Shown: positions 16,341 to 41,067 of the stretch, one piece after another
Numbering within the stretch: the stretch's first letter is position 1
How the letters are laid out: each line of letters begins with the position of its first letter
DNA from: an uncultured delta proteobacterium
GTDB taxonomy: Bacteria; Desulfobacterota; Binatia; UBA9968
Direction of reading: 5' to 3'
Assembly (NCBI GenBank): GCA_963771465.1
Contig: CAVYTU010000019.1
Coordinates: forward strand, 96,001-160,000
DNA length: 64,000 nt
Translations under genes and position numbers: made by a program
The notes under the pieces: model-generated
Database searches by the model: none
Told to the model about the DNA's origin: nothing
The model's input: the letters and a program-made list of their open reading frames with translations, nothing else

Positions 16341-17327
16341 CTAGGAAATCTCGGTAAAGTACGGTATCGCTCTGAGCGCCATGCTGGCGGCGAGAATTCC
16401 CAGCGACGTCAAGGCGAATGGATAAAACCACGGCACTTGCCGGTCCAAGGTTTTCACTAGGAACGCGCCCCTTTCGGTGTTGTTGATATCGGCGTAAGCG
16501 CTTTGGAGCTGCTGCGCGTCGCGCACGTCATAATATTTACCGCCGGTGCTTTCCACCGCGGCGATGAGCCGCGGCGCGTCGCGCACCCGATCGACCTCGA
16601 CGCCGATGAAGTGGATCTTAAAATTTTCCGCCTTAGCTTTCGTGATCGCCTCGTAGAGATCCCGGCCGGTATTGTTCTCGCCGTCCGTGAGCACCACCAT
16701 GACTTTGCCTTTGGTCGCTCCTCTGCCCTCGCGCGCCTGCTTCAACGCCAGGTCGACCGAAGTAAAAATTCCTTCGCCGATGGCCGTTTGACCTTCGCCG
16801 GCGAGAGTCTTGTTATCGACCATTTGGAGGTAACGCCGAACATAGGCCTCATCGAAGGTCATCGGCGCCACGACATAACCGTTCTCGGAAAAAACGACAA
16901 TCGCCAATCGGTCATCCTGGCGCCGCTGCACGAATGCCGACATCGCCTCCTTGACAGCTTCAAGACGGCTCTTTTCTCTGGTCTTGATCCCCTGCCTGAG
17001 TCGCTCCAAAGAGCCCTTAAGATCGATCGGCTCCTGCATGCTCGACGACAGGTCGAGTACCATGACGATGTCCAACCCCTGCTTCGCCACCAAACGTTCC
17101 GCGTAGGGCAGCACCGGATCTAACAAGGCGACGACCAAAAAACCAAGCGCGACGTATTCGAGAAACTTAGGCAAGAAGACCAGGGGAGAGGCCGGGCGCA
17201 GATGCGGCTTGAGATAGAACAAGAGCGGGTGAACAAAATAATTCTTCCGGCGCCGCCAGCGAATCAGCAAGACCACGCCGATAATCGCGAGTAGAATCCA
17301 GAGCAGATCGAGCCGGGCAAATTGCAT
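16341..17327 (-). CDS. Membrane-anchored VWA protein (BatA/MxaC-like)
   Basis: N- and C-terminal TM segments; MIDAS DLSSSM, TAIGEGI, VLTDGENN. Confidence 0.88.
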   Translation of the reverse strand: MQFARLDLLWILLAIIGVVLLIRWRRRKNYFVHPLLFYLKPHLRPASPLVFLPKFLEYVALGFLVVALLDPVLPYAERLVAKQGLDIVMVLDLSSSMQEPIDLKGSLERLRQGIKTREKSRLEAVKEAMSAFVQRRQDDRLAIVVFSENGYVVAPMTFDEAYVRRYLQMVDNKTLAGEGQTAIGEGIFTSVDLALKQAREGRGATKGKVMVVLTDGENNTGRDLYEAITKAKAENFKIHFIGVEVDRVRDAPRLIAAVESTGGKYYDVRDAQQLQSAYADINNTERGAFLVKTLDRQVPWFYPFALTSLGILAASMALRAIPYFTEIS

Positions 17328-17503
17328 TATTCGTTCCCGTGCATTAGTTCAATGCCGCGAGCAGTACCGACATCAGACCGAGCGTCTTTTCATCACAAAG
17401 CCGGCAGGGGCAACCACCAGTGTAGTCGCTAAAACTCGGTATTCCATTATTGCGTTCTTTGCGGTTAATACTCCGAAGCTTGAACCTCGTGTACGATTCG
17501 GCG

Positions 17504-18475
17504 TTAGTGGCGCGCCAGGTCGGCGAATTTGCCGAGATCACCCTGCACTTGATCGCGCCAGTCTTTCCCCAGTTGAATACCTTGCGGGCTATAGAGCACC
17601 TGCTCGCAGCGCTCTAAAATACTTTTTACCGGCGCGCTCAGACCGTTCTGTCCGTGCTCTCGCAACATGGTTTCAATTTCCTGGGCGGTGAGACTTGCCG
17701 CTTCGATTTCCAACGACTCGCTCAAATAGCTGCGTAGGAACTGGCTCACTTGGGAATAATAACGCTGCTGATCCCCGGGAGATTCTCTGCCGATCGCTTG
17801 CGTTTGCTGCATGAAATCGCGCACCCTGCGCCGCCGCGCGCGCCGGCTGAGACGCTTTTTCACGGGTTTTTCTCGATGCGATTTCGCCCACAGACGGCGA
17901 ACCAACTGGATCATCAGCAATAGGAGTCCTGCCAATCCGAGAGCGATTGGAATAATCCATCTCTGTCTCGTCACTTGCCATAGATCACGGTTATCGCGAA
18001 GTCGCAGAGTGTCGGCGGTCAAAGTGGAACGCAGTCCCACTTTGGTAACCGGCACCGGCACGGACTCGGCCGCGCTTTCGCCGGCCGCGCGGGCTGCGCC
18101 CGTGCGGGTGAAATAATAGAGCGGAAACGACGGAATCCTGAGCTCCACGTGGCCGCTCTCGTAGGTGGTAAGAAGGATTTTGACTTCAGTGACCTGTTTG
18201 TTCGCTCCCAACGAGCCCTGACGCACGGCGATCTCGCGCACCACGAACGGCGCTAAATTCAGGTTTTCCTTTTTTAGATTGTCGACGACGATTTCGATAG
18301 TGGGATCATGCACCGCTTTGACAGTGTAATAAAAAGTATCGCCGACCCATATCGCGGTCCGGTCGAGCTGCGTCGACAGCACGATCTTAGCTTCTTTGGG
18401 TTTTTGAACCGGCGCGGCGGCGCTGAGTGTTAGGAAAGCGAGTAGCAATAACCCCATTGATTGAAGCGACTTCAT
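17504..18475 (-). CDS. Exported/membrane protein of MoxR-VWA clusters (MxaA/BatD-like)
   Basis: Signal peptide, beta-rich domain, one TM helix, C-terminal YYSQVSQFLRSYLSE...SLTAQEI; overlaps the DUF58 stop codon. Confidence 0.6.
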   Translation of the reverse strand: MKSLQSMGLLLLAFLTLSAAAPVQKPKEAKIVLSTQLDRTAIWVGDTFYYTVKAVHDPTIEIVVDNLKKENLNLAPFVVREIAVRQGSLGANKQVTEVKILLTTYESGHVELRIPSFPLYYFTRTGAARAAGESAAESVPVPVTKVGLRSTLTADTLRLRDNRDLWQVTRQRWIIPIALGLAGLLLLMIQLVRRLWAKSHREKPVKKRLSRRARRRRVRDFMQQTQAIGRESPGDQQRYYSQVSQFLRSYLSESLEIEAASLTAQEIETMLREHGQNGLSAPVKSILERCEQVLYSPQGIQLGKDWRDQVQGDLGKFADLARH

Positions 18476-19356
18476 TTACGCCTCTTACGCGCCAGGAAGA
18501 AACCCAAGAGCGAATCCAAGTAGGGCGAACCGACGGGGAGAAACAGATGATCCAGATTGAGATGATAAAATGATCGCTGCAGGCCAACCCTGCGCTCGTG
18601 CATGAGCGTGCGATATATATTTTTGTTGTGCCGGTTAAGATTGACCACCAACGCGCCGCCCGACTCGGCGTCGTGGAAACGCACGAACCCTTTGCCGCCG
18701 GGCAGCGCGGTGTCCCACTCGTCTTCAATAACAATGGGCATGAGATCATGCTTGCGCGCCAGATGGCTCAGCGCATGGGAGTGAAAACGATCTTCCACCT
18801 GAACGAAGTCCGAGATCAAAAACAATAGCGTCGACGTCGTCAGCCGCGTCAGCAGATGTTCGAACGGGAGACTGAAGTCGGTGCGCGTCGATCGCGGTTT
18901 TGCGTTCCACAGCGTTTCGACGACGCGCCAACTGTGCGCCTGTCCTTGCTTTAATGGCATATCCAATTCTATGCGATCGGTGAAGCCGAGCAGACCGACT
19001 TTCATATTGTCGCTGGCGGCGGAGAAAGCCAAAGTCGCGGCGATCCGCACCAGCAACTCGCGCTTCGAGCCATCGACGCTGGCGAAGTCCATGGAACGTG
19101 ACAAGTCGGCGATGATCACCGCGCTTAATTCCTTTTCTTCAAAGTCTTTCTTCACGAACGGATAACCCATGCGCGCCGTGGCGTTCCAGTCGATCTGCCG
19201 GTAGTCATCGCCATGCTGATAGCGCTTGTGCTGATCGAACTCGAAGCCACGCCCGCGCAAGGGGCTGCGATAATCGCCCACATGATGATCCCGCACCGCC
19301 TTGCGCGTATAGATCTCCAGATAGCGAAGTTCTTCCATTAGTTCTTGGGGAATCAT
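18472..19356 (-). CDS. DUF58 protein (MxaS-like)
   Basis: GDYRSPLRGRGFEF, YQHGDDYRQIDWNATAR, DLSRSM, FLISDF. Confidence 0.9.
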   Translation of the reverse strand: MIPQELMEELRYLEIYTRKAVRDHHVGDYRSPLRGRGFEFDQHKRYQHGDDYRQIDWNATARMGYPFVKKDFEEKELSAVIIADLSRSMDFASVDGSKRELLVRIAATLAFSAASDNMKVGLLGFTDRIELDMPLKQGQAHSWRVVETLWNAKPRSTRTDFSLPFEHLLTRLTTSTLLFLISDFVQVEDRFHSHALSHLARKHDLMPIVIEDEWDTALPGGKGFVRFHDAESGGALVVNLNRHNKNIYRTLMHERRVGLQRSFYHLNLDHLFLPVGSPYLDSLLGFFLARKRRK

Positions 19357-19466: not shown

Positions 19467-20468
19467 CTATGGTATCGGCACCTTGCCTAACATCTCATCG
19501 ATAATTTCATCCGGCGAAATATTCTCGGCCTCCGCGCGCACGGTGCGGATCAAACGATGGCGCAGCGCGTCCGGCGCGATCCGCTTGACGTCGGCCGGCA
19601 GCACGTAGTCCCGGCCGGCAAAGAAGGCAGTCGTCCGCGCTAGAGCCAGCAGATGCTGCGCCGCGCGCGGCGAGGCGCCGTGCAGCACCATTTCGCTGAC
19701 CAAGGTCAAGCTCGTCGGCAATCCATTACGGGTCGCCCGCACGATGCGGATGACGTACTCGCGAATCGCGTCGCTGACGTAGGTTTGGCCGATCTCTCGA
19801 CGAATGCGGATCACATCCGCCGGCGTCATGATCGAGTGCACCGTCACCGCGCTCAAGTTACGCGCCAACATCGCCGCTTCGTCGGCGTGGGACGGATAGT
19901 CCACTTTTACTTTTAGAGAAAATCGATCCACCTGCGCTTCCGGGAGGGCGTACACGCCTTCCTGCTCCACCGGGTTTTGCGTCGCCAGAACCCAAAAGGG
20001 TTCTTCCAACGGATAGGTTGTTTCGCCGATCGTCACTTGGCGCTCCTGCATCGCCTCCAAAAGCGCGCTCTGAGTTTTTTGCGTCGCGCGATTGATCTCG
20101 TCGGCGAGTATCAAATTGGCGAAGATCGGCCCCTTCTCGGTGCGAAAAGAGCTCAGCGCCGTATCGAAGATGCGCGTGCCGATGATGTCGGCGGGAAGCA
20201 GATCGGGGGTGAACTGAATGCGCTGAAACTTGGCGCTGATGGTGTTGGCCAGCGTCATCACCGTCAGTGTCTTGGCCAAGCCGGGAACGCCTTCGAGCAA
20301 CACGTGGCCATAACCCGACTTCTCGTCGCCGTCGCGCCGAAACGAATAAGGAATCTCGGAAAATAGACCGATGAGTAAGCGCTGAATCAGCCACTCCTGG
20401 CCGACGATCACCTTGTTGATCTCCTGCGCCACCGCCTGCACGGCATCCGCAGCGCGTTTCTCACTCAT
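19467..20468 (-). CDS. moxR: MoxR family AAA+ ATPase (MxaR-like)
   Basis: GHVLLEGVPGLAKT, RIQFTPDLLPADIIG, LADEINRA, QSALLEAMQERQVT, ATQNPVEQEG, GASPRA. Confidence 0.93.
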   Translation of the reverse strand: MSEKRAADAVQAVAQEINKVIVGQEWLIQRLLIGLFSEIPYSFRRDGDEKSGYGHVLLEGVPGLAKTLTVMTLANTISAKFQRIQFTPDLLPADIIGTRIFDTALSSFRTEKGPIFANLILADEINRATQKTQSALLEAMQERQVTIGETTYPLEEPFWVLATQNPVEQEGVYALPEAQVDRFSLKVKVDYPSHADEAAMLARNLSAVTVHSIMTPADVIRIRREIGQTYVSDAIREYVIRIVRATRNGLPTSLTLVSEMVLHGASPRAAQHLLALARTTAFFAGRDYVLPADVKRIAPDALRHRLIRTVRAEAENISPDEIIDEMLGKVPIP

Positions 20469-20543
20469 TGCTTCGCCAGCATGCACAGACTACTTGACCT
20501 CGCAGAATGATCTGGAGTTCGAATTGAGAGTACTCGTCGCATC

Positions 20544-21545
20544 TCACAATAACAGCGCGACCAGAAACATCCCTACCGCGGCCATCAATACCGCGTGATG
20601 AAAATCCTGATATTCGACGGACTTTCTAAATCCGACAATTTCGCGCTCGCTCAAGACAATTTCGGCGAAGGACTTTTCCAACTCTAGACCGCTGAAAGAG
20701 CGGTAAAATTTGCCGCCGGTGCTCTCGGCGATCCAATGCAAATTGCTCTCATCGAAGCGGCTGATGATCCGGTTGCCCTTGTCGTCTTCGAGATAGATCG
20801 GCCGGTCCTTCTCATAGCCGACCGGTATCGGCGCGCCGTCGCGCGAACCGACGCCGATGGTATGAACTTTTATGCCCTGCTCTTTGACCTCGGCGACCGC
20901 CGCATTGAGCTCATTGCCGTTGTCCTCGCCGTCCGAAAGCAAAATGAAAACCTTTTTGTGGCGCGCCGTTTCCGGCAGGATTTCAGTTTCTTTCTTGACC
21001 ACGGTTAGACCGTTTCTCAGCCCGCGGCCGATATTGGTGCCGTGATTGATCGTTGCGTCGTCTTTTAAATAGTCGATGTAGTAGTGAATATTATTGGCGT
21101 CCTCGGTTAGGTACGAAACGACTATGCTGTTGCCGGCAAAAGAGACCAGACCGATGCGGTCTTGTGCCAACTTGGTGCGCACGAACGAACCCATCACGTC
21201 TAACGCGCGCGCCAAGCGCGACGGCTGAATATCGCCGGCGCGCATCGACGGCGAGGTATCGAGCAAAAAAACCAAATCCATGATGCCGGGCTGGGGAATC
21301 TTTCGCTCTTGAATCCACTGCGGATGAGCCAGCGCGACAATGATCGCGGTCATCACCAAGTTCAATAATAAGCAGCGTAAGAAATCCTTGCGCACGGACG
21401 CGACGTGGGAGATGCGCGTGAGCGCGCGGCCGACGCCCAAGATTTTCCGCGTGCGCCGTTTGGTATAGATAAAGTAGAGCCAACACGGCAACAGCGCGAG
21501 CAGCAGAAAAAACCACTTGAAATAGTCAGGGTAGAGAAATTTCAT
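20544..21545 (-). CDS. Membrane-anchored VWA protein (BatB/MxaL-like)
   Basis: MIDAS DTSPSM, DIQPSRL, DRIGLVSFAG, LLSDGED, IGVGSRDGAPIP. Confidence 0.88.
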   Translation of the reverse strand: MKFLYPDYFKWFFLLLALLPCWLYFIYTKRRTRKILGVGRALTRISHVASVRKDFLRCLLLNLVMTAIIVALAHPQWIQERKIPQPGIMDLVFLLDTSPSMRAGDIQPSRLARALDVMGSFVRTKLAQDRIGLVSFAGNSIVVSYLTEDANNIHYYIDYLKDDATINHGTNIGRGLRNGLTVVKKETEILPETARHKKVFILLSDGEDNGNELNAAVAEVKEQGIKVHTIGVGSRDGAPIPVGYEKDRPIYLEDDKGNRIISRFDESNLHWIAESTGGKFYRSFSGLELEKSFAEIVLSEREIVGFRKSVEYQDFHHAVLMAAVGMFLVALLL

Positions 21546-21559
21546 CGCCAACAAGCCAT

Positions 21560-22177
21560 CTAGCCGCGCTTCTCAGGTGCCATCTGCTGTTGCGATGGGT
21601 CTTGGGGACGCATTTTTTCGATCAGGGTTTTGACTTTTTGCTGCTGCTTTTCCTGACTGCGATCTTGCTTCGCAAAAATCGCGCGAACCAACTCGTAGTC
21701 GAACTTTAGATCCCAATCGTCGGGCTTCGCCGCCAGTCCTTTCTGATATTCGGACAATGCCCCTTTGAGCGCAGCCAACGACGCCTCCGGGTTTTTGCTC
21801 TCGGTGGCTTGACGGAACAACAGATTGCCCATCCAGAACGCGTAATCGCTGCTTTCGGCCAACTCCGGTAGATTAGCCGGCGATTGTTCAAGTTTTTCCA
21901 CGGCCGCTTGATTTTGTTTCTGGTGATAGAGAATCGCTACCTGGTTGAGATTGACCTGGGTGTATTCTTCCTTGAACAGCCTTGCCAACCAAGGCAGTTT
22001 TTGAAATGGCATCTCGGCGCGGCGATAGGACTCCAGCGCTGCCGTGCTATCGCCCTGCTGAAACGCATTTTGAGCGGCCTCGAACTGCCGTGTCATCCAG
22101 CCGTAACCCAACAGTCCCAGAGAGAGCAGCAGCAACAACAGATAACCGGCGGTAATAAGATATTTTCGAATCGGCAT
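21560..22177 (-). CDS. TPR-like membrane-anchored protein (MxaK/BatC-like)
   Basis: N-terminal TM helix; GNLLFRQA...YQKGLAAKPDDWDLKFDYEL; Q-rich tail. Confidence 0.65.
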   Translation of the reverse strand: MPIRKYLITAGYLLLLLLSLGLLGYGWMTRQFEAAQNAFQQGDSTAALESYRRAEMPFQKLPWLARLFKEEYTQVNLNQVAILYHQKQNQAAVEKLEQSPANLPELAESSDYAFWMGNLLFRQATESKNPEASLAALKGALSEYQKGLAAKPDDWDLKFDYELVRAIFAKQDRSQEKQQQKVKTLIEKMRPQDPSQQQMAPEKRG

Positions 22178-22181
22178 TGTT

Positions 22182-22580
22182 TCACTTGCTCTCAGTGGGA
22201 AACTTGCGCTGTGCCCAGGCAGAGAAGCCATTTTCCAGCACCGCGACGTTGCGATAGCCTTTGCCGCGCAGCATCAAGTAGGAATACGACTCATCGACGC
22301 CGCCGGGCGGACAAGCGCAATAAAGCACCACGCGGCCCGCTTTCGGGATCTCTCCGAGCCGTTTCGCCAACTCGGCGATGGGAATCGACAGCGCGCCCGG
22401 TAAATGCGCCTTTTGGAAATCGCCAGCCGGACGCAGATCGACAAAGATAAACTTCTCGCCGCCCTCGAGCAGCTTCTTAACCCGTTCGGCGGAAATCGGT
22501 TCAATATATTCGTCATCGTGGCCCGCATGCGCTACCATCGGCGCGACCGTCGCGCAGGCCAAAGATCGCCAAGGTGACAA
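22182..22580 (-). CDS. Exported rhodanese-domain protein #1 (true start probably ~22650, with indels in the signal peptide)
   Basis: FVDLRP..F...HLPGALSIP, VVLYCACP, GYRNVAVLENGFSAW; predicted cleavage AHA|GHDDE. Confidence 0.85.
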   Translation of the reverse strand: MSPWRSLACATVAPMVAHAGHDDEYIEPISAERVKKLLEGGEKFIFVDLRPAGDFQKAHLPGALSIPIAELAKRLGEIPKAGRVVLYCACPPGGVDESYSYLMLRGKGYRNVAVLENGFSAWAQRKFPTESK

Positions 22581-22652: not shown

Positions 22653-24370
22653 TTACTTGAGATTGTCGTAGATAACCTTGCCGCCGACGATCGTCATGAC
22701 GCTGGTGATCTTGCCAATCTCTTCGTCACTGACGGTCAGGTAATCCTTGTCTAGCACCACCATGTCACCCCATTTGCCGATTTCCAAGGTGCCGAGAAGT
22801 TTGTCACGGAGCACGTACTCCGATGCCCAACGGGTCGCCATCAGCAGCGCGGTTTTGCGGTCGATGGCGTTGCGCGCGCCCCAGACTCGGCCATCGGCGT
22901 CTTTGCGGGTAATTAGAGTGCCCAGCCCGGAAAACGGCTTGATCCCAAGATCAGCGTCGTCTTGCTGCCAGGCCACCCGGCCACCGGCATCGAGAATCGA
23001 TTTCACCGGCAACACCCAACGGTGCGCCGCCTCCTCGCCGTAATCGCGCATCACTTGATTGGTGCGCAGGAGATATTTCGGCGCGCAGCTCCAGGTAATG
23101 TTGAGTTTCTTGGCGCGCTCGATCTGATCCGGCCGCGGGTTCATGGTGCAATGATCGATGGCGTGGTTCTTGGAGCGGATTTGATCCAACGTCAGCCCGC
23201 TTCCGCGCTGGCTTTCTCGATAATGTCCATCAGCACGTCGGTGGCTTTATCGCCGGCACTATGAGTTCCAGCGATCCGAACGCCCGCCTTGACGGCCGCC
23301 CAAGCGGCACGCCCACGCACGTTATCGGTAGTCAGCCGGCAATCCTCGCGCGCTTTAATTTTGGGATCCGGCGACAGCGTCGTGCACACGCCTGGATAGG
23401 AAGAATCCGTCGAGCCGGACGAAATGCCGATCAGCCAGAACCGCTCGGTGCCGTGGCCGATCAGATTGCCAAAGCGATTGACGAAACTCTCGCCATAAAT
23501 GTTATCGCGATAACCGGCCTCATTGGTGTAAGCGAGCCGGATCGGCATCATGCCTTTTTGATCCATGTAATGAAACGCCGAGATCGCTTCCGAACCCAAA
23601 GACGAAGACCAGGTCGTGACTCCGGCGGCGCCCCACATCTCCAATTCCTTCAAATAGATCGGCGCGAGATCTTCCGGCTTGGGCTTGGGAATAATCTCTT
23701 CGTAGAATATGAGACTGACGCCGGCGCCGATGCGGCCGGTAAATTCTCCCTGTTGGTTTTTCGGAATCTCGAGCTGCGCTGGATCGTAGCGCTTGAGCAG
23801 CTGCTCCAACGCTTTGCTGTTGGCCATCGCTTTGGTGTCGGTGACATGAACCATGGTCGGATTGTTCGGCGTAAACTTGTCCAAGTCGAAGCGTGTCTTG
23901 TTGTTGACGAAACCATCGGCGACGCTGCGCGGGCGGATGCGCGTGATCAGCCACTCGCCGGGTTTCTTTTTCTTGGCTGCTTCGGCCAAACGCTCAAGCA
24001 TTTCCTCTTCGGTGCGCCCTTCGATCTTCACTTCTAACAAATCTGGGTTCATCGTCGGCGCATGGCGGTCGAGGCCGTACTCATGCAAGTGGGAATGAGT
24101 ATCGATAAGGCCGGGAATCACCGCGCGACCGCGCAAATCGATGCGCCGGGTCGCTGGGCCGGCGAGCGCCAGCACTTCCGCATTGCGCCCGACTTTGAGA
24201 ATCTTGCCGTCGCGCACGGCGATCGCCTGCGCCAGACTGAAATTCGCATCCACCGTGATGATCTTACCGTTGTGCAGCACCAAGTCGGCATAACGAATCA
24301 CTTCGGCGGGCAGAGCCTGCGCCCAAGCGTGTCCGCCGCCCAGCGCGAAATATAGGGCGATCACGCGCAT
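22653..24370 (-). CDS. Exported amidohydrolase_3 (YtcJ/NfdA-like) paralog 1, one apparent frameshift ~23195
   Basis: PGLIDTHSH, THSAGD, DHCTMNPRPDQ, SCAPKY, GTLEIGKWGDMVVLD; adding one G in GCGGGCTG joins the two ORFs. Confidence 0.85.
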
Positions 24371-31444: not shown

Positions 31445-31494
31445 ATCGATCCTCCTCGAATTTTTTAGCATCACGATAATAAGGTTGCTGCTGT

Positions 31495-31853
31495 CTATTT
31501 ACTTTCGCGCACGGTAAACGGAAAACTCTGCTCCACCACATGGCCATCGACGGACAATACCCGAAACTTGACAATATAACGACCCGATGGCATCTGCTTG
31601 AGTGCGACAGACAGTTGCTTGGGATCCTCAGCCGACACCTGAGCGTTGTCCGCATCGACGCGCTTGCCGCTCGGGGTCAAAGACCGACGCCGAAGAATAT
31701 TTCGGCTCCAGCCGCTCGTTGAACCACAACTGAATTTTCCCAGGCGAAGAAAACAGCGTAGCGCGTCCCGCCGGCACGGATTTCACCAGATACGCGTGGG
31801 CCGACGCGACGGCGGGAATTAAGCAAAATGGTAAAAAGTAATAGCCGATACAC
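31495..31853 (-). CDS. copC: CopC periplasmic copper-binding protein, with apparent indel(s)
   Basis: Read manually: ASA|HAYLVKSVPAG...LWFNERLEP in one frame, then G.Y.V.FRVLSVDGHVV; joined by removing one base from the GGGG run at ~31675; start approximate. Confidence 0.82.
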
Positions 31854-34401: not shown

Positions 34402-36251
34402 CTATTCAATCACTCCCGGCGCTTCCTTGCCGCCGAAATCCGCCACCTGTAGACCGTGGGTTTTGCCTCTCAACGCCGAGTTCTCATTGACGATCTTGCC
34501 CGCCACCATAGTAAGAATCGGCGTCACCGTGCCGATCTCCTTCTCCGGCACCGTGAAATAATCGCGGTTGAGTACCAGCAGATCAGCCAACTTTCCCAAC
34601 TCCAGGGAGCCCAGAACTTTTTCTTTTAAAACATATTCCGACGCCCATACCGTGGCCATCTTTAACGCGGTCACTCGGTCGATCTTCTCTCGCCCTGCGT
34701 AAACTTTGCCATTGACGTCGCGAGTCACCAGGAGCTCGAGATAGTAGAACGGCCCCTTGGTCGGCGTGTAATGAATATCGGTTTCGAGAACCGTCTTCAC
34801 ACCGGCATCAATCAAGCTCTTCGCCGGCGCGACCCAGTTCAAATATTTTTCACCATAGTCACGCAGCACTTCCGGACTGGCGTTTTCGATATACTTGGGG
34901 CTGCAACTGACCATGATACCGAGCTGCTTCAAGCGCGGCATCTGCTCCGGCCGAGGGTTCATCGTGCAGTGATCGACCGTATGGCGCTGCGCTTGGATCT
35001 GCTGCGGCGACATGCCTGCCTTCTTGCTTCCCTCTTCGATGATGTCCATCACTTGATCGAGCGTGAAGTCGCCGGCGACATGGGTGTTGCTGAAGCGCGC
35101 CCCGCGAGCGACGATTTCCTCCAAGACCTTGCGCCGATAATCGCCGGCGTCGAGACGCGACATTTCGCGGGATTTGATTTCCGGCGGCGCGTCGGCAACC
35201 GATTTTAGCTGCGGGTACGGAGCCGTCGGCGCTCACCAGGCTGATGCCGTTGGGCCAAAGGAACTCCGATCCTTGTCCTTCCATCAGCTCCATGTAGCCG
35301 CGCACCATCGCCGGTCCCTGGGAAGTTCCGGTGATGAGACTGCCCAAACCGTAAGCGAAACGCACGGTCATCTCGCCCTTTTGATCGAGCAAGCGGTAAG
35401 CGCGGATGGTGTTCAACGCCGACGTCGAAGACGACCAAGTGGTAACGCCGTAGGCGGCCAATTCCTCTTGTTCTTTTTTGTAGAGGTCGGCCAAGACATT
35501 GAAGCTTGCCGTCGAGAATGATGTCGGTCTGCAGCGATCGCCGAATACTCGCGCTCCAGACGATGCCGTCTGCGCTGATCTCTTCATCCAGCGCACCGTA
35601 ATAATTTTTGAACGCTTCCAGCGCTCGGCTGTTAAACAAGCCGCGATTACCCGCTTGGATGAATATCGGATGATCGCGCGAGATTTTATCCAGCTCTTCT
35701 TTGGTGAACATCTTGAGATCGGTCATCGCCACTTTGATGTCCACTGGCTTATCGTCTTTAAACACACGGTTCGGCAACCGTACCCAGATCCACTGCCCGG
35801 GTTTAGCGCTTTGCGCCTCCTTTCCGGCGGTTTCCAAAGCGCCTTTCCTCAACTCCTCCCAGGTGCGACCTTTGACCGTGGGTTTGCGCAGTTCGGGCAC
35901 GCTCCTGCCCCAGTGATCCATGGTGTATTCCATCGCGTGGTAGTGCGTGTCGATGATTCCCGGCACGACGGTTCTGCCGCGTAAATCTATGACCTCAGTC
36001 TTGGGGCCTTTCAGCGCCAGAATCTTGCTATTCGGTCCCTGCGCCAGAATTTTTCCGTCCCTTAGCGCCAGCGCTTGGCTGATCGTGCCGGGACTCGCGG
36101 AGGTCGTTTTGTTATCCATGGCAACGACCTTGCCGTTGTGCAGAATCGTTTCCGGATAACGGATCAATTCCGCCGGTATCGTTTGCGCCCAAGCGAGGCG
36201 CAAAGGCAGCAGAGCAAAAACTAGCAACAGTAAAGAAAATCGCTTTGTCAT
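34402..36251 (-). CDS. Exported amidohydrolase_3 paralog 4, two apparent frameshifts (~35500, ~35218)
   Basis: PGIIDTHYH / YGVTTWSSS / THVAGD, DHCTMNP, SCSPKY, GSLELGKLAD distributed over three frames. Confidence 0.82.
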
Positions 36252-36281: not shown

Positions 36282-36731
36282 TTATTTCTTCGCTCCCGTC
36301 TCAACCGGATACTTGCGTTTTAACCAGTCTTGATACGGATCTGCCAGCACGGCAGTGTTGCGATAACCGTAATCTTTGAGCACTTGATACGCTAGCTCGA
36401 TGATCTGATTCTGCGAACAATCGCAGTAAAGCACCACACGGCTTGACTGTGGGATCTCGCGGAAACGCTTCTCCAAGTCTTTCATCGGCAGCGAGCGCGC
36501 GCCGGGCAATCTGGATTTTTGGAACTCCATGGCCGGCCGCAAATCAATCAGCACCATCTTCTCTCTCGCGTCGAGAAAGCCCTTGACCTGCTCTGCGGTC
36601 ACCGTGACCACGTCGTCCTCAGTGCCATGGCCGGCCTGGATGATGCCTGGCCAAATTAGCAACAACGCCGTCACCGTTCCGACCAGCGGTCTTAAGTTTG
36701 CCACGGCGGAGTGAATCAACCGAGCGATCAT
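36282..36731 (-). CDS. Exported rhodanese-domain protein #4
   Basis: IDLRPAMEFQKSRLPGARSLP, VVLYCDCS, GYRN; predicted cleavage IQA|GHGTE. Confidence 0.88.
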   Translation of the reverse strand: MIARLIHSAVANLRPLVGTVTALLLIWPGIIQAGHGTEDDVVTVTAEQVKGFLDAREKMVLIDLRPAMEFQKSRLPGARSLPMKDLEKRFREIPQSSRVVLYCDCSQNQIIELAYQVLKDYGYRNTAVLADPYQDWLKRKYPVETGAKK

Positions 36732-36741
36732 CTAGCAGGCT

Positions 36742-38548
36742 TTATTTTGCGGCGCCGAATCTTAACCCGACGGCGCTCAATCCTTCGCTCTTGGCGAACT
36801 GTGGCGCCGTGTAGACCGGCTTGCCGGCTACCGCAGTCATCATAACGTTTATCTTTGACAACTCTTGATCAGGGGTACTGAGGTAGTCGCGGTCGATGAT
36901 GACAAAGTCCGCCCATTTGCCGGGCTCCAGCGAGCCAAGCTGATTGTCACGCAAGACATACTCCGCCGCCCAGCGCGTAAACATCTTGAGCGCAGTTGTC
37001 TTGTCCACCGCTTGTTTCGCACCCCAGACGCGCCCCTGGCTGTCCTGTCGCGTAACGGCGTACTTGATGTGCGCGAACGCGCCACCCTCTTTGTTGTGCA
37101 CTCTGCGGTCGTCCATTTCCATGACGACTTTGCCGCCGGCGCGCAGGATGGTTTGCACCGGTGCGTTAAGCTCGTGGGCATATTTCTCGCCGTAGTCGCG
37201 CGAGATGTCGGCGGCGTCTTCAATATAGCGCGGCGCGCAGCTCCAGATAATGTCGAGCTTCTTGCCGCGCTCGACCTGATCGGCGCGCGGGCTCATGCCG
37301 CAATGGTCGATGTTATGTTTGCGGGCGCGAATTTCGTCCGGTGTCAGCCCGGCCTCCGCGCTGGCTTTTTCAATCACATCGAGAAACCGATCCACCGCGC
37401 CGTCGCCGTAAACATGAGTGCCGGAAATTCTTTGGCCGGCTCCCACCGCCGCACGCATAATTTTATACTCCGCCTCGGCCTCGCATTTCTCCCGCGATTT
37501 GATCTCTTTCCTGGCATCGACTGTCGTGCATTGGCGCGGATAGCTACTGTCCAATGCGGAAAGCGAAACGCCGATGGCCCACAGAAAATCCGTGCCGTGG
37601 CCGGAAATATTACCGATACGCTTATAGAATTCCGCGGCGCCGGATGAGCCGGCCGCGCCCATGCGGTGCGAATACGCGAATCGGATCGGCAATTCGCCGC
37701 GATTGTCCAAGAGAACGAACGCGTTGAACACTTTCACGGTCGGCAAGGACGACGACCAAGTCGTCACGCCATGAGCACCCCACGCCTGCAATTCCTTTTT
37801 ATAAATCGCCGCCAACGTTTGGGGTCGCTTCACCAAGATCTCGCCGATCAGAGTGCGCATCGATCCAGAACCGATCGGTCCGCGCGGTTTCCCTTGGTTG
37901 TCGGTCTGGATCTCTTCGGGCAGCGCTCCGAAATATTCGCTGAACAGGTTGAAAATATGGCTGTTGGCGCGCCGGTCCGTGCCACGCAACTGAACAACGA
38001 TGGGATTGCTCGGCGCCAGCTCGTCCATCTCCTTGAGCATCATTTTATTGCCGAACTCCTCGGCCACGCTGCTCGGCAAGAGTTGCACATGGATCATCTT
38101 CCCGGCGCCGGCTTCGGCGATCTTCGCTTTTAGCTGCGCCACGGCGTCTGCCACCGATTTCACCTGCAGCGGAGTTTGCCGGTACTGTTTGAGTTCGGGC
38201 TCGAGAACTTCGAGATCATTAGCCCAATTGGCCGGCGCGTAGTCGAACAGATGGGAATGGGTATCGATGAAGCCGGGGACGATCGATTTTGCCTTTGAGA
38301 TCGAGCCGGATCGTCTTGGGACCGGCAAGGTTGATAATCTCAGCATTGCTTCCCACCGCCATCACTTTGCCGTCGCGCACGGCGAGCGCTTGGGCGATCG
38401 AGAAGCGCTCATCGACGGTAAGAACTTTTCCGTTGTGATAGACGGCATCGGCAAAGATCACCATACCCTTGCCGGTCTGTGCGGAGGCCTGGAAAGCAAG
38501 AAGCGAAACGAGAGAACACAAAAGCCAAGTGGAAATTTTTAAACTCAT
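36742..38548 (-). CDS. Exported amidohydrolase_3 paralog 5, one apparent frameshift ~38288
   Basis: Signal peptide ORF 38548 down to LDLKGK; an extra A in a run precedes SIVPGFIDTHSH, THVYGD, DHCGMSP, SCAPRY. Confidence 0.85.
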
Positions 38549-38721: not shown

Positions 38722-38728
38722 CGAGGTC

Positions 38729-39160
38729 CTAGCGCATGCCGCTCGGCCGGCGCCCCGTTTCGACCGGAAACTTGCGCTTTTCCCAACCCTGAAACCCATC
38801 TAGCATGACCGCGATGTTTTTATACCGTTCGTCTTCGAATAGTTGAAAGACCGCGTCCGGGATATCGTTTGACGGCATCGCGGCATAAATCACGACCCGT
38901 CCCGATTTGGGAATCTCGCCGAGCCGTTTTTCTAATTCGGTCGCCGGGATCGAGCGCGATCCGGCGAGCCGCTTCTCTTGGAATTCTTGCGCCGGCCGCA
39001 AATCGATGAGTATAAATTTTTCGCCAGCGTCGAGCAAAAGTTTAAGCCGATCAGCCGCGATGGTCGTGACATCCCGGTTCTCATGCCCGGCATTGGCAAG
39101 CGCCGGGCAAAACGCAAGGAGCCAGAGCGTTAGGACAACAACTAGGTGCGCCGCCGTCAC
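38729..39160 (-). CDS. Exported rhodanese-domain protein #5, lacking the active-site Cys
   Basis: IDLRPAQEFQEKRLAGSRSIP; loop reads VVIYAAMP instead of YCxC; predicted cleavage ANA|GHENR. Confidence 0.85.
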   Translation of the reverse strand: MTAAHLVVVLTLWLLAFCPALANAGHENRDVTTIAADRLKLLLDAGEKFILIDLRPAQEFQEKRLAGSRSIPATELEKRLGEIPKSGRVVIYAAMPSNDIPDAVFQLFEDERYKNIAVMLDGFQGWEKRKFPVETGRRPSGMR

Positions 39161-39240
39161 ACTTCGATTCTCTCTTTTTGCGGTCTATACGTTCTTTGCG
39201 GTTAAACTTCTTCCCTCTGAGGTGCGCGCAGTTCGCGTTC

Positions 39241-41067
39241 TTACTTCGCTCCCGTCCGTTGATAAACCACCTTGCCGCCGACGATCGTCAAATCGACGAG
39301 TAACTCGTCGATCTTATCGTCCGCCACCGCCATGTAGTCGCCGTTAAACACCACCATGTCGGCGTACTTGCCCTTCTCGAGGGAACCGAGCATTTTTTCA
39401 TCACCCATGAACTTCGCCGCATTATAGGTCGTCATCATCAAGGCTTGCTTGCGATCGATCGCTTGGTTTTTCCCCCACACGCGCCCTTCGCGCGCGCTGC
39501 GCGTGCTTTTATCCGTCCTTGTGACGAATCGTTCGATGCGCCACACCGGCGGCTCGTCCGGCTTGCCGCCTTCGAGGTGAACGTTCACGCCGGCACCGAG
39601 CAATTCCTTCACCGGCTGCATGCTGTGCATCTGTTCGCCGTATTGGGAGAAAACCATTTCTTCGCCGCGCACCACGCGCTGGCTGAATATCTCCGAGTTC
39701 AAACCGAAGGCTAATTTATCGCCCAATTGTTTGGCCAACGTGATCGACTTCTGATCCCAGATCAGGTTGTGGTCGAGCGCGTTGCGGCCGAGCATTTTAT
39801 GCACTTTGATTTCGGACTGCTTCTCGGCGTCGGCGAGACTTTCCAAAACGATCGTCGTCGCGCCGCTGCCCATGTTGTGATTGCCGCTGATATTCCAGCC
39901 GTGCTTGCGCAGCAATTGCAGCGTCGTCCATTCGGTGTCGCGCTTTTCCCCGAGGGTCAAATCGCCCCACTGCTTGCCAGTCCACTCGGGCCCAGTCCAT
40001 TTGTTACGTCCATAGAGTCCGCCTTTGACCTCGGCGTGCGCGTTGCGCTTGGCTTCGTTGGTGAGAATGCCGCCGTCGTCCGACGCGCCGTCCACCGGAC
40101 CGACCGCGGCGCCGACGATGCGAATCATATCGTCGCCAAGACTAAAGTTCACCAAGTTAGGCGTGCGCCGAAGTATCTGGTCGGCCATGGGATTTTGCCG
40201 CGCGAAATCTAGCGTCGGGCGAATGCGCATCTTGAGGCGATCTTGATGATGCATCTGGCTGACGATCGTGACCGTGTAACCGCTGGCGTGGCCGGTGATC
40301 GTGGTCACGCCGACTCTGAGAAATTGCTCGATGATCTCCGCCTGCTCTTTAAATATCTCTTCGGTCAACTCCGGCCAATCGCGCAGGTTCCAGCCGACAA
40401 AACCGAGCGCCTGGCTGAACATTTGCCCTGTGGGGTTACCACTCGAATCCTTGACGACCTGAAAGTGATCTTTGCGTAGCCCAGCGGCGAACGCCTTTTC
40501 CAGCATGAGCGTGTTGACGACGCCCTCCGAGCTGGATAGCGAAAGCATCAGCGGATTATCAGGCGCGAGCTTGTCCAAATCCTTGGCGGTCAATTTGGAA
40601 AGATCGCTGACAAACTCGTCCGCCATGCGTACGTAAACGTTGGAACCGGGTTTCGCTTGCGACACCAGCTTGCGCACCTGCTCGAGCATCTCGGGCACGT
40701 TCTTGCCGCGAACTTTTTTGCCGACCACGCCATTGACCATGGTGTCTTTATACAAGTCGCCGCCGGCAAAGGCGTTGTCGCCGTCACTATCGATGAATCC
40801 CGGCACCAAGCTTCTTCCCGCCAGATCGACACGGCGGGTCGCCGGGCCGGCCATTCGTTGAATCTCGGCGTTGGTGCCGACAGCGAGTATCTTGCCATCG
40901 CGCACCGCCACCGCTTGCGCGACGGTGAAATTTTTGTCGGCGGTGAGAACTTTGCCGTTGTAGAGAATCGAGTCGGCATAACGGATCAACTCCGGCGGCA
41001 GACTCTGCGCCGCGCCCTGGGTCACGCCAACCGCTAGCACGATCAATGCGTAAAGAATCGCTCGCAT
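39241..41067 (-). CDS. Exported amidohydrolase_3 paralog 6, divergent (HxH replaced by DGD)
   Basis: Family N- and C-terminal beta domains (NGKVLTAD, AVRDGKI, GSLEKGKYADMVV, TIVGGKVVY), but PGFIDSDGD and no Cys. Confidence 0.88.
   Translation of the reverse strand: MRAILYALIVLAVGVTQGAAQSLPPELIRYADSILYNGKVLTADKNFTVAQAVAVRDGKILAVGTNAEIQRMAGPATRRVDLAGRSLVPGFIDSDGDNAFAGGDLYKDTMVNGVVGKKVRGKNVPEMLEQVRKLVSQAKPGSNVYVRMADEFVSDLSKLTAKDLDKLAPDNPLMLSLSSSEGVVNTLMLEKAFAAGLRKDHFQVVKDSSGNPTGQMFSQALGFVGWNLRDWPELTEEIFKEQAEIIEQFLRVGVTTITGHASGYTVTIVSQMHHQDRLKMRIRPTLDFARQNPMADQILRRTPNLVNFSLGDDMIRIVGAAVGPVDGASDDGGILTNEAKRNAHAEVKGGLYGRNKWTGPEWTGKQWGDLTLGEKRDTEWTTLQLLRKHGWNISGNHNMGSGATTIVLESLADAEKQSEIKVHKMLGRNALDHNLIWDQKSITLAKQLGDKLAFGLNSEIFSQRVVRGEEMVFSQYGEQMHSMQPVKELLGAGVNVHLEGGKPDEPPVWRIERFVTRTDKSTRSAREGRVWGKNQAIDRKQALMMTTYNAAKFMGDEKMLGSLEKGKYADMVVFNGDYMAVADDKIDELLVDLTIVGGKVVYQRTGAK

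Follow-up and report, generated by a model that had tools for sequence, protein, structure and literature searches.

The window, i.e. the whole stretch of DNA analysed (64,000 nucleotides), contains a cluster of 21 genes at positions 16341-41073, all on the minus strand, as revealed by the ORF listing and Pfam analysis. The gene content includes six Amidohydro_3 paralogs (AH), five exported single-domain rhodaneses (Rhd), CopC, a CopD-cytochrome c-thioredoxin-like fusion, two orphan binding proteins, and a TPR-VWA-MoxR-DUF58-DUF4381-like-VWA block. All five Rhd genes are directly downstream of an AH gene; AH4 is followed by CopC. A preliminary description had proposed about 21 co-oriented genes, including these five pairs, CopC in the sixth slot and two binding proteins, and all of them were recovered, the binding proteins as SBP_bac_6 matches. 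It had also supposed that no such system was described, and no description of such a cluster was found in the literature searched. The cluster is a conserved, undescribed soil-bacterial gene set. Its features, and two that are possibly associated, are:

AH1, 39241..41073, minus strand: exported Amidohydro_3 protein, intact, 610 aa, degenerate
Rhd1, 38729..39160, minus strand: exported rhodanese-like protein, N-terminal Gly-His kept, AAM, without the CxC loop
AH2, 36742..38548, minus strand: Amidohydro_3 in two frames, extra base at ~38287; N-terminal piece with signal-like sequence
Rhd2, 36282..36731, minus strand: exported rhodanese-like protein, AGH N-terminus, CDC loop
AH3, 34402..36251, minus strand: Amidohydro_3 in three frames, extra bases at ~35502 and ~35218
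Rhd3, 33896..34330, minus strand: exported rhodanese-like protein, AGH, CDC
AH4, 32066..33814, minus strand: exported Amidohydro_3 protein, intact, 582 aa, modelled; next gene CopC, not Rhd
CopC, 31495..31786, minus strand: two frames, extra base at ~31669; N-terminus hidden by further upstream indels
SBPa, 30329..31474, minus strand: orphan SBP_bac_6 binding protein
AH5, 28414..30172, minus strand: Amidohydro_3 in two frames, extra base at ~29816
Rhd5, 27827..28276, minus strand: exported rhodanese-like protein, AAH, CDC
CopD fusion, 25729..27945, minus strand: CopD membrane domain, cytochrome c (CATCH) and Cys-less thioredoxin-like domain
SBPb, 24429..25505, minus strand: orphan SBP_bac_6 protein, directly upstream of AH6, also in other loci
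AH6, 22653..24370, minus strand: Amidohydro_3 in two frames, frameshift at ~23192; orthologs single-frame
Rhd6, 22182..22580, minus strand: exported rhodanese-like protein, AGH, CAC
'TPR' gene, 21560..22231, minus strand: 223 aa, membrane-anchored, helical
VWA1, 20544..21554, minus strand: BatA/BatB-like, DxSxS MIDAS motif; two N-terminal hydrophobic segments and one C-terminal
MoxR, 19467..20486, minus strand: MoxR-type AAA+ ATPase (AAA_3, Pfam)
DUF58 protein, 18472..19356, minus strand: Pfam match
'MxaA-like' gene, 17504..18475, minus strand: 323 aa, signal-like N-terminus, one internal hydrophobic segment, DUF4381-like
VWA2, 16341..17327, minus strand: BatA-like VWA protein, DxSxS motif
TPR protein, 41200..41892, minus strand: lipobox-like N-terminus, 127 nt upstream of AH1; possibly associated
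522-aa exported protein in tandem, 43341..46844, minus strand: two copies, ~99% identical; possibly associated

A homolog of the 41200..41892 TPR protein is present near the cluster in locus L007, and homologs of the 522-aa protein border it in L002 as well as in L007. The feature search gave OprO/P-type porins for the tandem proteins, as a lead only. No permease or ATPase gene for SBPa was found within the cluster.

The two intact AH genes matched Amidohydro_3 with 116-140 bits (Pfam cut-off 29.7). Signal-like hydrophobic N-termini, ending in AxA followed by Q and without a twin-arginine motif, were called by eye in AH1-AH5; for AH6 such a sequence is clear only in the L013 ortholog. The AlphaFold2 model of AH4 (pLDDT 92.1) is nearest in fold to 3IGH and 3ICJ, two uncharacterised metal-dependent hydrolases from Pyrococcus (best PDB matches, Foldseek E 5e-28 and 4e-27), and the profile search also matched AH to the Pyrococcus structures (E 1.8e-19). 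Profile alignment showed that HxH, His378, His415 and Asp479 (L013 numbering) are retained in the AH clade. There is no conserved Lys opposite the GVKLF...DGS segment of 3IGH/3ICJ; the canonical bridging Lys of amidohydrolases, at the carbamyl-lysine position, is not conserved, and a non-canonical metal site, as proposed in the preliminary description, is therefore plausible. Cys416 and Cys437 (L013 numbering) are near-invariant and sit at the ends of strands 6 and 7. In AH1, DxD replaces HxH, N and F stand at the positions of the conserved Cys pair, and G takes the place of the strand-8 Asp.

The five Rhd matched the rhodanese family with 38-58 bits (Pfam cut-off 22.2). The His at the predicted mature position 2 is invariant (48/48 Rhd), and 44 of the 48 contain a CxC loop, the first Cys of which occupies the canonical rhodanese catalytic position in the alignment to 1YT8 and 3TP9. 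In NCBIfam, the rhodanese_LYCAU (seleno)protein family matched best (50.6 bits, under the cut-off of 115), and many of the weaker relatives in the phylum search have an in-frame TGA; these suggest a redox-active CxC/CxU pair. The start of Rhd6 is probably further upstream, given the 154-aa length of a protein 99% identical to it. A seventh Rhd paralog in the genome is preceded not by AH but by an LVIVD-repeat β-propeller, which has a weak, below-cut-off match to SBP56 (methanethiol-oxidase family), and therefore this type of partner is not specific to the AH fold. In the window locus and in L002, which are closely related, AH apparently lost its metal ligands together with the CxC of Rhd; however, L001 contradicts a joint loss, as its AH1-type gene is followed by an Rhd with CDC.

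The two CopC fragments scored 43 and 27 bits (Pfam cut-off 23.3), and intact CopC orthologs have a mature N-terminal His (HAYLVKS) and a DGH motif. The CopD domain (74 bits) is fused to a cytochrome c with the CATCH motif, as claimed earlier; whereas the redoxin part of the claimed fusion is an AhpC/TSA-like domain that has no Cys and scored 23.7 bits, under the cut-off of 26. Orthologs of the fusion have a conserved C-terminal tail (...PAPD(D/E)HVH); indels disrupt both this tail and the cytochrome c part of the window copy. CopC and CopD are single copies in the 6.9-Mb genome, both in the cluster. For the terminal block, the family search recovered the two VWA proteins, MoxR (AAA_3, 213 bits) and DUF58 (178 bits); whereas the 'MxaA-like' gene had only a DUF4381 match of 26.3 bits, under the cut-off of 27.2, and the 223-aa 'TPR' gene had no Pfam match. 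The latter is syntenic in every locus that reaches its position. The genome encodes five other MoxR paralogs, one within another MoxR-DUF58-VWA set, and therefore the MoxR/VWA block of the cluster looks like a dedicated copy. VWA1 has the same three-segment layout as the BatA-type protein in the excerpt of PMC5700661, which reports experimental exposure of the VWA domain to the periplasm.

The survey of gene neighbourhoods that had been suggested was carried out, and the same architecture was found in 16 other independent loci, so that the arrangement is beyond chance. The TPR-VWA-MoxR block is present in all eight loci reaching at least 3 kb past the last pair, and 11 of the 17 loci have CopC, the CopD fusion or both (hand counts); on every contig that is long enough, synteny extends to CopC, the CopD-cytochrome c fusion and the MoxR/VWA block. 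Locus records labelled Acidobacteriota, Binatia, 'Deltaproteobacteria' and Thermodesulfobacteriota share this gene order at 42-94% protein identity. The link of AH to these genes, also claimed earlier, appears again in the divergent L053 (AH 29% identical), where MoxR, DUF58 and two VWA genes come after AH and a CopD-cytochrome c fusion lies close by. MoxR is also the gene immediately after the AH genes in L011 and L094.

An Rhd gene directly follows 30 of the 39 AH genes in the window and the 16 loci (hand count); the next gene after the other nine is AH in seven cases and CopC in two. No Rhd directly follows AH in the 29-46% identical clade (0/8; L009, L011, L012, L053, L094), and the 78 loci of distant Amidohydro_3 genes had no adjacent Rhd, Cop or MoxR gene (hand count). 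The pairing claimed earlier is thus conserved; the proposed need of every enzyme for a dedicated partner is putative, as nine AH genes have no adjacent Rhd. The AH and Rhd distance matrices are correlated (r = 0.67, reached by 0/2000 permutations). The nearest Rhd was the partner of the nearest AH in 17 of 28 pairs, and the remaining 11, from a reading of the printed list, are in the same ortholog group or divergent outliers. For the deep paralogs within genomes, the correlation is uneven (r = -0.04, 0.43 and 0.67, reached by 58, 22 and 4 of 120 permutations, respectively). The adjacency counts and the comparison across all pairs support the AH-Rhd pair as a conserved unit, with orthologous pairs inherited together.

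The complex prediction suggested earlier was run with residues 26-580 of AH6 and 46-158 of Rhd6 from L013. The median ipSAE was 0.64 vs 0.00 for the best of three controls; the runs had at least 75% of contacts in common, with a partner pLDDT of at least 84. The ipSAE mark, reached by 58/80 solved complexes and 2/110 mismatched pairs, is roughly valid here, own alignments having been used. The AH-side interface includes His102 (of HxH), His378, and residues 328 and 331-334, in the loop where the carbamyl-Lys would sit. The Rhd side includes residues 47-51 (His-Asp-Asp-Glu-Tyr), matched to the AH catalytic residues by elimination from the interface list and not as a listed pair. The model supports binding of Rhd to AH and predicts that the N-terminal His tail takes part in the contact with the catalytic face. 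The confident part of the interface includes this His but not the CxC loop, and the sulfane sulfur transfer proposed earlier stays hypothetical.

The AH and Rhd pairs might be two-protein periplasmic metallohydrolases with dedicated metal-loading machinery, a tentative reading to which we give slightly less than an even chance. The AH would be Sec-exported metalloenzymes of the amidohydrolase fold, with a non-canonical active site that consists of HxH, His, His-Cys, Cys and Asp and lacks a conserved carbamylated Lys. A small exported Rhd would work with each AH, docking on the insertion domain. Its N-terminus, if processed at the predicted cleavage site (small residue, His, acidic residues), may reach the AH catalytic face, where the invariant His could hand over a metal ligand, or complete or gate the metal site. 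Because the AH enzymes would cross the membrane unfolded, they would be metallated in the periplasm, their presumed location. CopC, with its N-terminal His copper site, and the CopD-cytochrome c-thioredoxin-like fusion could be part of metal supply and insertion. The third part of this machinery would be a Bat/Mxa-type complex of cytoplasmic MoxR and DUF58 with membrane-anchored VWA proteins bearing periplasmic MIDAS domains; the direction of metal flow and the role of ATP hydrolysis are likewise putative. The two orphan binding proteins, perhaps with the porin-like genes, might handle the passage of substrate or product. Among candidate metals copper comes first; only the co-location of CopC/CopD and the chemistry of N-terminal Xaa-His peptides point to it. 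The excerpts of PMC8689200 and PMC13344008 describe copper binding and uptake for CopC and CopD homologs. Several observations run against this reading: the CxC hallmark outside the confident interface is left unexplained by the complex model, the thioredoxin-like domain of the CopD fusion lacks Cys, and the cytoplasmic MoxR would have to act across the membrane. The AH genes with no adjacent Rhd, the seventh Rhd behind a β-propeller and the uneven correlation of deep paralogs count against it too.

The same interface could also belong to enzyme-inhibitor or gatekeeper pairs, in which the Rhd tail plugs the AH active site and chelates the catalytic metal, keeping AH silent until release or further export. 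TIMPs on matrix metalloproteinases and the periplasmic Inh/AprI inhibitors on serralysins are comparable. The predicted contact of Rhd 47-51 with the face including His102 and His378 would suit such a plug, as would the invariance of its His and the small partner gene directly after most of the enzyme genes, as in protease-inhibitor gene pairs. We consider inhibition unlikely, since it accounts neither for the retention of the CxC loop nor for the co-inheritance of CopC/CopD and MoxR/VWA, and leaves the control of the nine partnerless AH unexplained; moreover, Pfam analysis over the cluster genes showed no secretion system genes.

Sulfur chemistry, the line of the preliminary description, with Rhd as true sulfurtransferases or redox proteins, seems rather improbable. 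Rhd might deliver sulfane sulfur for the assembly of a Cu-S or persulfide site in AH, take up sulfur set free by AH, or manage Cys416/Cys437 via thiol-disulfide exchange, with electrons passing to the cytochrome c domain encoded within the cluster. The canonical position of the first Cys of CxC and the near-invariant AH Cys pair fit these versions, and so does the SBP56-like neighbour of the seventh Rhd, weak as that match is. Likewise, the Cu-S-Mo site of CO dehydrogenase is built by the MoxR/VWA proteins CoxD/CoxE. However, the LYCAU match, which with the in-frame TGA of weaker relatives would favour sulfur, is under its cut-off; the Rhd loop lacks the basic residues typical of thiosulfate sulfurtransferases; CxC lies outside the confident interface; the most conserved Rhd residue is the N-terminal His and not Cys; and no sulfur-oxidation or sulfur-carrier genes were found by Pfam among the cluster genes.

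Nutrient-scavenging hydrolases, CopC/CopD copper homeostasis and a Bat envelope-stress operon might instead be independent modules sharing a genomic island, which we find quite improbable. Bat-type MoxR/VWA operons and CopCD are widespread alone, and CopC/CopD could be housekeeping genes since they are the only copies in the genome; for the Bat proteins, the excerpt of PMC3557215 states that a specific function has not been demonstrated. Against such independence, the gene order recurs across differently labelled taxa, AH is linked with MoxR/DUF58/VWA and CopD-cytochrome c again in L053, and the block looks dedicated beside the other MoxR paralogs.

Single-nucleotide indels interrupt AH2, AH3 (twice), AH5, AH6, CopC and the cytochrome c part of the CopD fusion. 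Soil-metagenome contigs (90-100% match) lack the extra base at 29816, 31669, 35218, 35502 and 38287, and therefore the frameshifts look like assembly errors. Five of the six predicted sites are thus corrected, the AH6 site at ~23192 being outside the matches listed; the indel pair 26262/26282 is also corrected in these contigs. A decaying locus, with real frameshifts and the cluster as pseudogenes in this organism, is very hard to credit. In its favour, about ten such indels crowd into the AH/Rhd/Cop part (19 kb) while the 6 kb of the MoxR/VWA block are free of them, and only ~2-3 of ~60 close SBP paralogs in the same genome gave split matches (rough count). Against it, the contigs omit one base exactly at five predicted sites, and the orthologs in the 16 loci are in frame, save L002 and L007 with their own, different frameshifts. 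An in-frame stop in AH6 was rejected in favour of the frameshift at ~23192.

The cluster comprises 21 co-oriented genes on the minus strand (16341-41073), according to the ORF calls and the Pfam search. It contains six exported Amidohydro_3 paralogs (AH1-AH6), five small exported rhodanese-like proteins (Rhd, numbered by the preceding AH), two orphan binding proteins (SBPa and SBPb), and two BatA/BatB-like VWA proteins (VWA1 and VWA2). The genes are arranged as follows.

39241-41073, minus strand: AH1, first in transcription order, then Rhd1
After Rhd1, minus strand: AH2, then Rhd2; AH3, then Rhd3
32066-33814, minus strand: AH4, then CopC, then SBPa
After SBPa, minus strand: AH5, then Rhd5, then a CopD-cytochrome c-thioredoxin-like fusion, then SBPb
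After SBPb, minus strand: AH6, then Rhd6
After Rhd6, minus strand: in this order, a 223-aa helical membrane protein, VWA1, MoxR, DUF58 and a 323-aa DUF4381-like protein
16341-17327, minus strand: VWA2, last in transcription order

The Pfam family Amidohydro_3 (PF07969) was matched by all six AH genes or fragments (42-140 bits; cut-off 29.7), Rhodanese (PF00581) by all five Rhd genes (38-58 bits; cut-off 22.2), and SBP_bac_6 by both binding proteins, alongside which no permease or ATPase gene is found in the cluster. The preliminary description had proposed AH-rhodanese pairs with CopC/CopD and a MoxR-VWA module, and three of its labels are weaker than it implied. The third domain of the CopD fusion, called a redoxin, matches AhpC/TSA below the cut-off and has no Cys; the 'MxaA-like' protein of 323 aa only approaches DUF4381 (26.3 bits; cut-off 27.2); and the 'TPR' protein of 223 aa has no Pfam match. 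A PhnD-like binding protein (15347-16339) was excluded from the system, as it is not conserved beside the cluster in L013, a locus with intact AH6 and Rhd6 orthologs. The Rfam scan of the whole window gave no match.

The AlphaFold2 model of AH4 (pLDDT 92.1) is a (beta/alpha)8 barrel with a composite domain. The best Foldseek matches, and the nearest solved structures, are the uncharacterised Pyrococcus metal-dependent hydrolases 3IGH and 3ICJ (E 5e-28 and 4e-27; TM 0.6-0.7), with about 22% identity. The AH clade shares the Pfam family, the fold and the HxH/His/His/Asp ligands with these YtcJ-type proteins; however, it is exported, paired with a small partner protein, devoid of a conserved carbamyl-lysine, and equipped with two extra near-invariant Cys. 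The metal ligands include HxH (strand 1), His378 (THxxGD, strand 5), His415 (strand 6) and Asp479 (strand 8) in L013 AH6 numbering, and are present in every canonical member aligned. Two Cys are near-invariant: Cys416, in the 'DHC' motif directly after the strand-6 His, and Cys437, in 'SC(A/S)P(K/R)Y' where strand 7 ends.

The strand-4 carbamylated Lys, which bridges two metals in subtype I enzymes such as urease and phosphotriesterase, was not found in the AH clade alignment. Opposite the 3IGH/3ICJ segment GVKLF..DGS, presumably the site of the carbamylated Lys, the clade reads G(A/I)Sxx(G/S)xDxSYP, and the column is occupied by G, S, R, V, K, E or H; the loop alignment is possibly one residue off here, and the neighbouring columns also have no conserved Lys. 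The AH metal site is therefore unlikely to be of the classical carboxylate-bridged binuclear type. The AH1-type genes (in the window, L002 and partly L001) have DxD for HxH, and have lost both Cys and the strand-8 Asp. Simultaneous loss of the AH ligands and of the CxC in Rhd was rejected as evidence of coupling, since it is confined to one lineage (the window with L002) and L001 contradicts it. The AH N-termini, judged by eye, resemble Sec signals without twin arginines; if this is correct, the AH proteins would fold and acquire their metal outside the cytoplasm.

The Rhd proteins were compared in an alignment of 48 sequences (five window genes, eight ORFs of other loci, and 35 of 105 database relatives). 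All 48 have a His right after the predicted cleavage site (A-x-A before the site, G/A/S-His after it), usually followed by acidic residues. The Tyr-Cys-x-Cys loop is present in 44, the four exceptions being of the Rhd1 type, and the N-terminal His is thus more conserved than the Cys. The best NCBIfam model is the rhodanese_LYCAU (seleno)protein NF041203 (50.6 bits, below the cut-off of 115). The Rhd family shares a single rhodanese domain, a signal peptide and a Cys at the catalytic position with rhodanese_LYCAU and PspE; two residues on, the LYCAU family has Sec or Cys, and Rhd has its second Cys. Rhd differs from both in the invariant processed N-terminal His, and in its place directly after the gene of an exported enzyme.

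Among 401 genomes of the phylum, the Rhd profile scored above 150 bits only in the window's own genome, whereas 109 others contained weaker rhodaneses (at most 96 bits). Many of these weaker matches have a single in-frame TGA inside, which fits a selenocysteine (LYCAU-type) rhodanese family. No AH, Cop, MoxR or LVIVD neighbours were found by tblastn at 20 such places that were fetched; the sole exception was L105, with weak cytochrome-c-like hits, and these places offered no clue to function. A seventh Rhd family member lies elsewhere in the window's genome (contig C15, about 768730-769130), with GH after the cleaved A, a CDC loop and a frameshift. It directly follows an exported LVIVD-repeat beta-propeller of 468 aa (PF08309, 79 bits; weak SBP56 match below the cut-off).

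C15, about 767322-769130 (L100:5323-7130): LVIVD propeller and seventh Rhd

About nine such propeller paralogs are present in the genome, and only this one has the rhodanese beside it. Whatever the partner does is thus independent of the amidohydrolase fold.

The AH6-Rhd6 pair of L013 (93% and 85% identical to the window AH6 and Rhd6) was modelled as a complex after removal of the signal peptides. The pair reached a median ipSAE of 0.64, against 0.00 for the best of three controls. Among solved complexes, 58 of 80 attain the mark of the tool, compared with 2 of 110 among mismatched pairs; these rates apply only roughly because self-supplied alignments were used. The runs had at least 75% of contacts in common, with a partner pLDDT of at least 84. 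We know of no solved amidohydrolase-rhodanese complex, and hence the score seems unlikely to reflect a structure memorised by the predictor. The contacts defined best are those of Rhd 121-132 with AH 123-127 and 154-158, which belong to the insertion domain. Also listed at the interface are Rhd 47-51 (His-Asp-Asp-Glu-Tyr) and, along the catalytic face of AH, His102, His378, 328, 331-334, 444, 482 and 500-501. The only printed pair of the Rhd tail is Glu50 with AH residue 156; by elimination from the interface list, the N-terminal tail of Rhd is probably what contacts the catalytic residues of AH. The model supports AH-Rhd binding as a prediction.

The window copy of CopC (PF04234) is interrupted, and is matched in two adjacent fragments (43 and 27 bits; cut-off 23.3). 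Seven CopC orthologs have a His after the predicted cleavage site (...A, then HAYL(V/I)KS...) and a DGH motif (...SVDGH...); the mature N-terminal His and the DxH are taken by us as marks of the Cu(II)-binding CopC type. The CopD fusion of 738 aa matches the Pfam families CopD (PF05425, 74.3 bits; cut-off 32.1), Cytochrom_C and, below the cut-off, AhpC/TSA; its score with the NCBIfam CopD equivalog NF033808 is below the cut-off (158.8 against 195). It has a CxxCH haem motif. In the orthologs, an MPGF motif, a thioredoxin-like domain devoid of Cys and a conserved ...D(D/E)HVH tail at the C-terminus are also present. The CopC/CopD proteins (YobA/YebZ, YcnJ) are associated with copper binding and uptake (PMC8689200, PMC13344008). 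The cluster has in common with them the CopC N-terminal His and DxH (in the orthologs) and the CopD membrane domain; however, its CopD is fused to cytochrome c, the Cys-less thioredoxin-like domain and the HVH tail. Both genes are also embedded in an enzyme cluster, in contrast to a copper-resistance or ycn-type operon.

The MoxR/VWA block shows Pfam matches to AAA_3 (213 bits), DUF58 (178 bits) and VWA (71 and 68 bits). Mxa genes (MxaRSACKL) help to load Ca into the periplasmic methanol dehydrogenase; the cluster contains no dehydrogenase gene, and its block is tied to amidohydrolases and CopCD instead. It shares MoxR AAA_3, DUF58, two membrane-anchored MIDAS VWA proteins and a putative helical-repeat protein with Bat (Bacteroides aerotolerance)- and Mxa-type operons; whereas its order is TPR-VWA-MoxR-DUF58-x-VWA, and the NCBIfam scores are far below the cut-offs (BatA 100 against 380, BatB 95 against 350; Pfam BatA PF07584, 22.3 against 25.9). 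VWA1 and VWA2 each have a DxSxS MIDAS motif, and the same three-hydrophobic-segment layout as Borrelia BB0173, whose VWA domain was shown to face the periplasm (PMC5700661). For Bat proteins in general, PMC3557215 states that no specific function had been demonstrated.

The distribution of the architecture was examined in 19 loci (one genome per species) and 80 kept of at least 295 metagenome relatives. The window's 24 protein pieces were compared with all loci by tblastn, ORFs and motifs were listed, and counts were made by hand. Among 7999 environmental candidates scored, 421 were AH4 relatives at E <= 0.001; the best 120 are 47% to 100% identical, with two or three paralogs on several contigs. 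Parts of the locus occur in soil or rhizosphere runs of 14 studies, and this frequency of the AH family in soil metagenomes suggests that a periplasmic activity of some ecological weight may underlie it. The 80 metagenome relatives, used as a negative control and not as a census, are mostly distant Amidohydro_3 genes, with five close loci.

A close clade is formed by the window and 16 of the loci listed (L001-L008, L010, L013, L014, L020-L023 and L037), with record labels of Acidobacteriota/'Acidiferrales', Binatia, 'Deltaproteobacteria', Thermodesulfobacteriota and Verrucomicrobiia. The order in L002 is nearly as complete as that of the window, and L001 has seven AH genes. The smallest versions, L003 and L007, combine a single AH-Rhd pair with CopC, the CopD fusion and all six genes of the MoxR/VWA block. 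Among the AH genes of the window and these 16 loci with enough downstream DNA, 30 of 39 are directly followed by Rhd, and the other nine by another AH (7) or CopC (2). The TPR-VWA-MoxR block was found in all eight listed close-clade loci reaching at least 3 kb past the last pair. CopC and/or the CopD fusion is present in 11 of the 17 close-clade loci; the remaining six either are short or fall inside an AH array.

Five of the loci listed (L009, L011, L012, L053 and L094) form a distant group with AH proteins 29-46% identical. Rhd follows none of their eight AH genes. In L011, L053 and L094, the last AH gene is immediately succeeded by MoxR, and L053 has in addition DUF58, a pair of VWA genes and a fusion of CopD to cytochrome c. 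These results indicate that the links to MoxR/VWA and CopD-cytochrome c are older and wider than the AH-rhodanese link. The remaining 78 loci listed served as a distant control (AH 23-37% identical, or a fragment only). No Rhd, Cop or MoxR homolog adjoins the AH in any of them; in one, a rhodanese-like hit lies 5.9 kb off.

The reading that we hold tentatively, with confidence slightly short of even, is that the AH proteins are periplasmic metalloenzymes acting as complexes with the rhodanese-like small protein. The processed N-terminal His of Rhd would extend to the AH metal site, where it would hand over the metal, or complete or gate the site. Supply and insertion of the metal, for which copper is the leading candidate, would fall to CopC, the CopD-cytochrome c fusion and the MoxR/DUF58/VWA complex. 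Three alternatives all accept AH-Rhd binding, and differ over what the contact does. The first, which we consider unlikely, is that Rhd inhibits AH in the manner of TIMP or Inh. N-terminal metal-binding arms are known in metallochaperones and inhibitors, such as the Met-His-Glu nickel site of HypA, TIMP, and the serralysin inhibitor Inh. These have a free N-terminus with a His or terminal amine that binds metal or reaches the metal site of the partner, as predicted for the Rhd tail. However, Rhd has no sequence or fold relationship to any of them, and the modelled resemblance would be at the level of mechanism only; it covers chaperones and inhibitors alike.

Sulfur or redox chemistry through the Rhd CxC is rated as less probable still. 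The first Cys takes the canonical rhodanese catalytic position (aligned with 1YT8 domain 2), and is present in four of the five window Rhd. The active-site loop reads C-x-C-P-(P/Q), without the basic residues typical of active sulfurtransferase rhodaneses, and the CxC is outside the confident interface list of the model.

The third alternative, that independent modules are merely co-located, appears improbable.

The AH clade, CopC and CopD are found only in this cluster in the window's genome; MoxR has five other paralogs there, including another MoxR-DUF58-VWA set. Orthologous AH-Rhd pairs remain together across genomes, and 17 of 28 nearest neighbours are concordant between AH and Rhd. The distance matrices correlate (r = 0.67, reached by 0 of 2000 permutations), a result that largely restates synteny. 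Within genomes, where a correlation would speak for deep co-duplication of the paralogous pairs, the values vary (r = -0.04, 0.43 and 0.67).

AH1 and AH4 are the only intact AH genes in the window. Single-base indels interrupt AH2, AH3 (twice), AH5, AH6 and CopC; in the CopD fusion, they affect the cytochrome c part and the C-terminal tail. Contigs of four soil-metagenome runs were aligned to 22001-41200, and matches of at least 90% were kept. One base is missing in the contigs at 29816, 31669, 35218, 35502 and 38287, all of which had been predicted as frameshift sites from the changes of frame; at each site, two or three runs contribute a single contig apiece (depth about 3-8). A paired change at 26262/26282 restores the cytochrome c region. 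AH6 and CopC orthologs elsewhere are in a single frame, and L002 and L007 have their own frameshifts at different places. An in-frame stop or selenocysteine in AH6 was ruled out, as the break is a frameshift. Real pseudogenes were largely rejected through the soil contigs, which leave the AH6 site near 23192 almost uncovered. The broken frames of the window are most likely assembly errors, to judge from these alignments, and the cluster genes are treated as functional in nature because the contigs omit the extra bases and the orthologs are in frame. A locus decaying in the source organism, with real frameshifts, is hardly credible given the five corrected sites and the single-frame orthologs.

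Each component of the cluster belongs to a known family, and the cluster is rated as a variant on MoxR/VWA-assisted periplasmic enzyme maturation, combined with an enzyme that has a small dedicated partner. No paper describing the gene combination was found among the openly accessible full-text articles searched. To our knowledge, Bat-type MoxR/VWA operons are common in bacteria, their clients are not known, and the role of CopD beyond copper uptake is unsettled. The repeated tie of MoxR/VWA and CopD to one exported enzyme family across divergent lineages thus provides a concrete candidate client. A rhodanese scaffold whose processed N-terminus bears an invariant His, predicted by the model to reach an amidohydrolase active site, also offers a simple idea for periplasmic metallation or gating. 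It is doubtful that this is a truly new type of two-subunit periplasmic metalloenzyme. In that case the AH fold would have given up its carbamyl-lysine bridge and acquired a His-Cys/Cys set; the centre would be non-canonical, possibly copper-thiolate, and completed or loaded by the Gly-His N-terminus of Rhd; and CopC, CopD-cytochrome c and the Bat-type MoxR/VWA proteins would be a dedicated periplasmic metallation and electron-supply line. It would then represent the first defined client for Bat-type MoxR systems, and the 'hydrolases' may be redox enzymes.

Several other features were observed in and around the cluster. The AH proteins of the rhodanese-less loci L009 and L011 (39-42% identical) are about 70-90 residues longer, and three of them end in a conserved His-containing tail, ...LEHIAIWEAEAAA..., which might stand in for the arm of the missing partner. 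A Rieske/LigXa-like oxygenase (13876-15174) adjoins the cluster, and is 92% identical to one beside the L013 cluster, which may simply mirror the close kinship of both genomes. Two tandem copies (about 99% identical; 43311-44910 and 45246-46845; spacing 1935 nt) encode an exported protein of 522 aa without a Pfam match. Its homologs flank the cluster in L002 and L007, and a feature search led to OprO/P-type phosphate porins and mostly Binatota clusters, as a lead only. The SBP_bac_6 family of SBPa is hugely expanded in the window's genome, with well over 100 tblastn hit rows genome-wide, of which roughly 60 (a rough count) have at least 37% identity; three copies lie at 5128-9759. Finally, an intergenic palindromic element without an Rfam match lies between AH5 and Rhd5 (28290-28400), and its 30-nt core has three copies in the genome. 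The depth of soil-metagenome contigs is 39-132x in the bin 27761-28400 and 1-14 elsewhere (summed, about 2700 at 28369), and the element may be a repeat common to many soil organisms.
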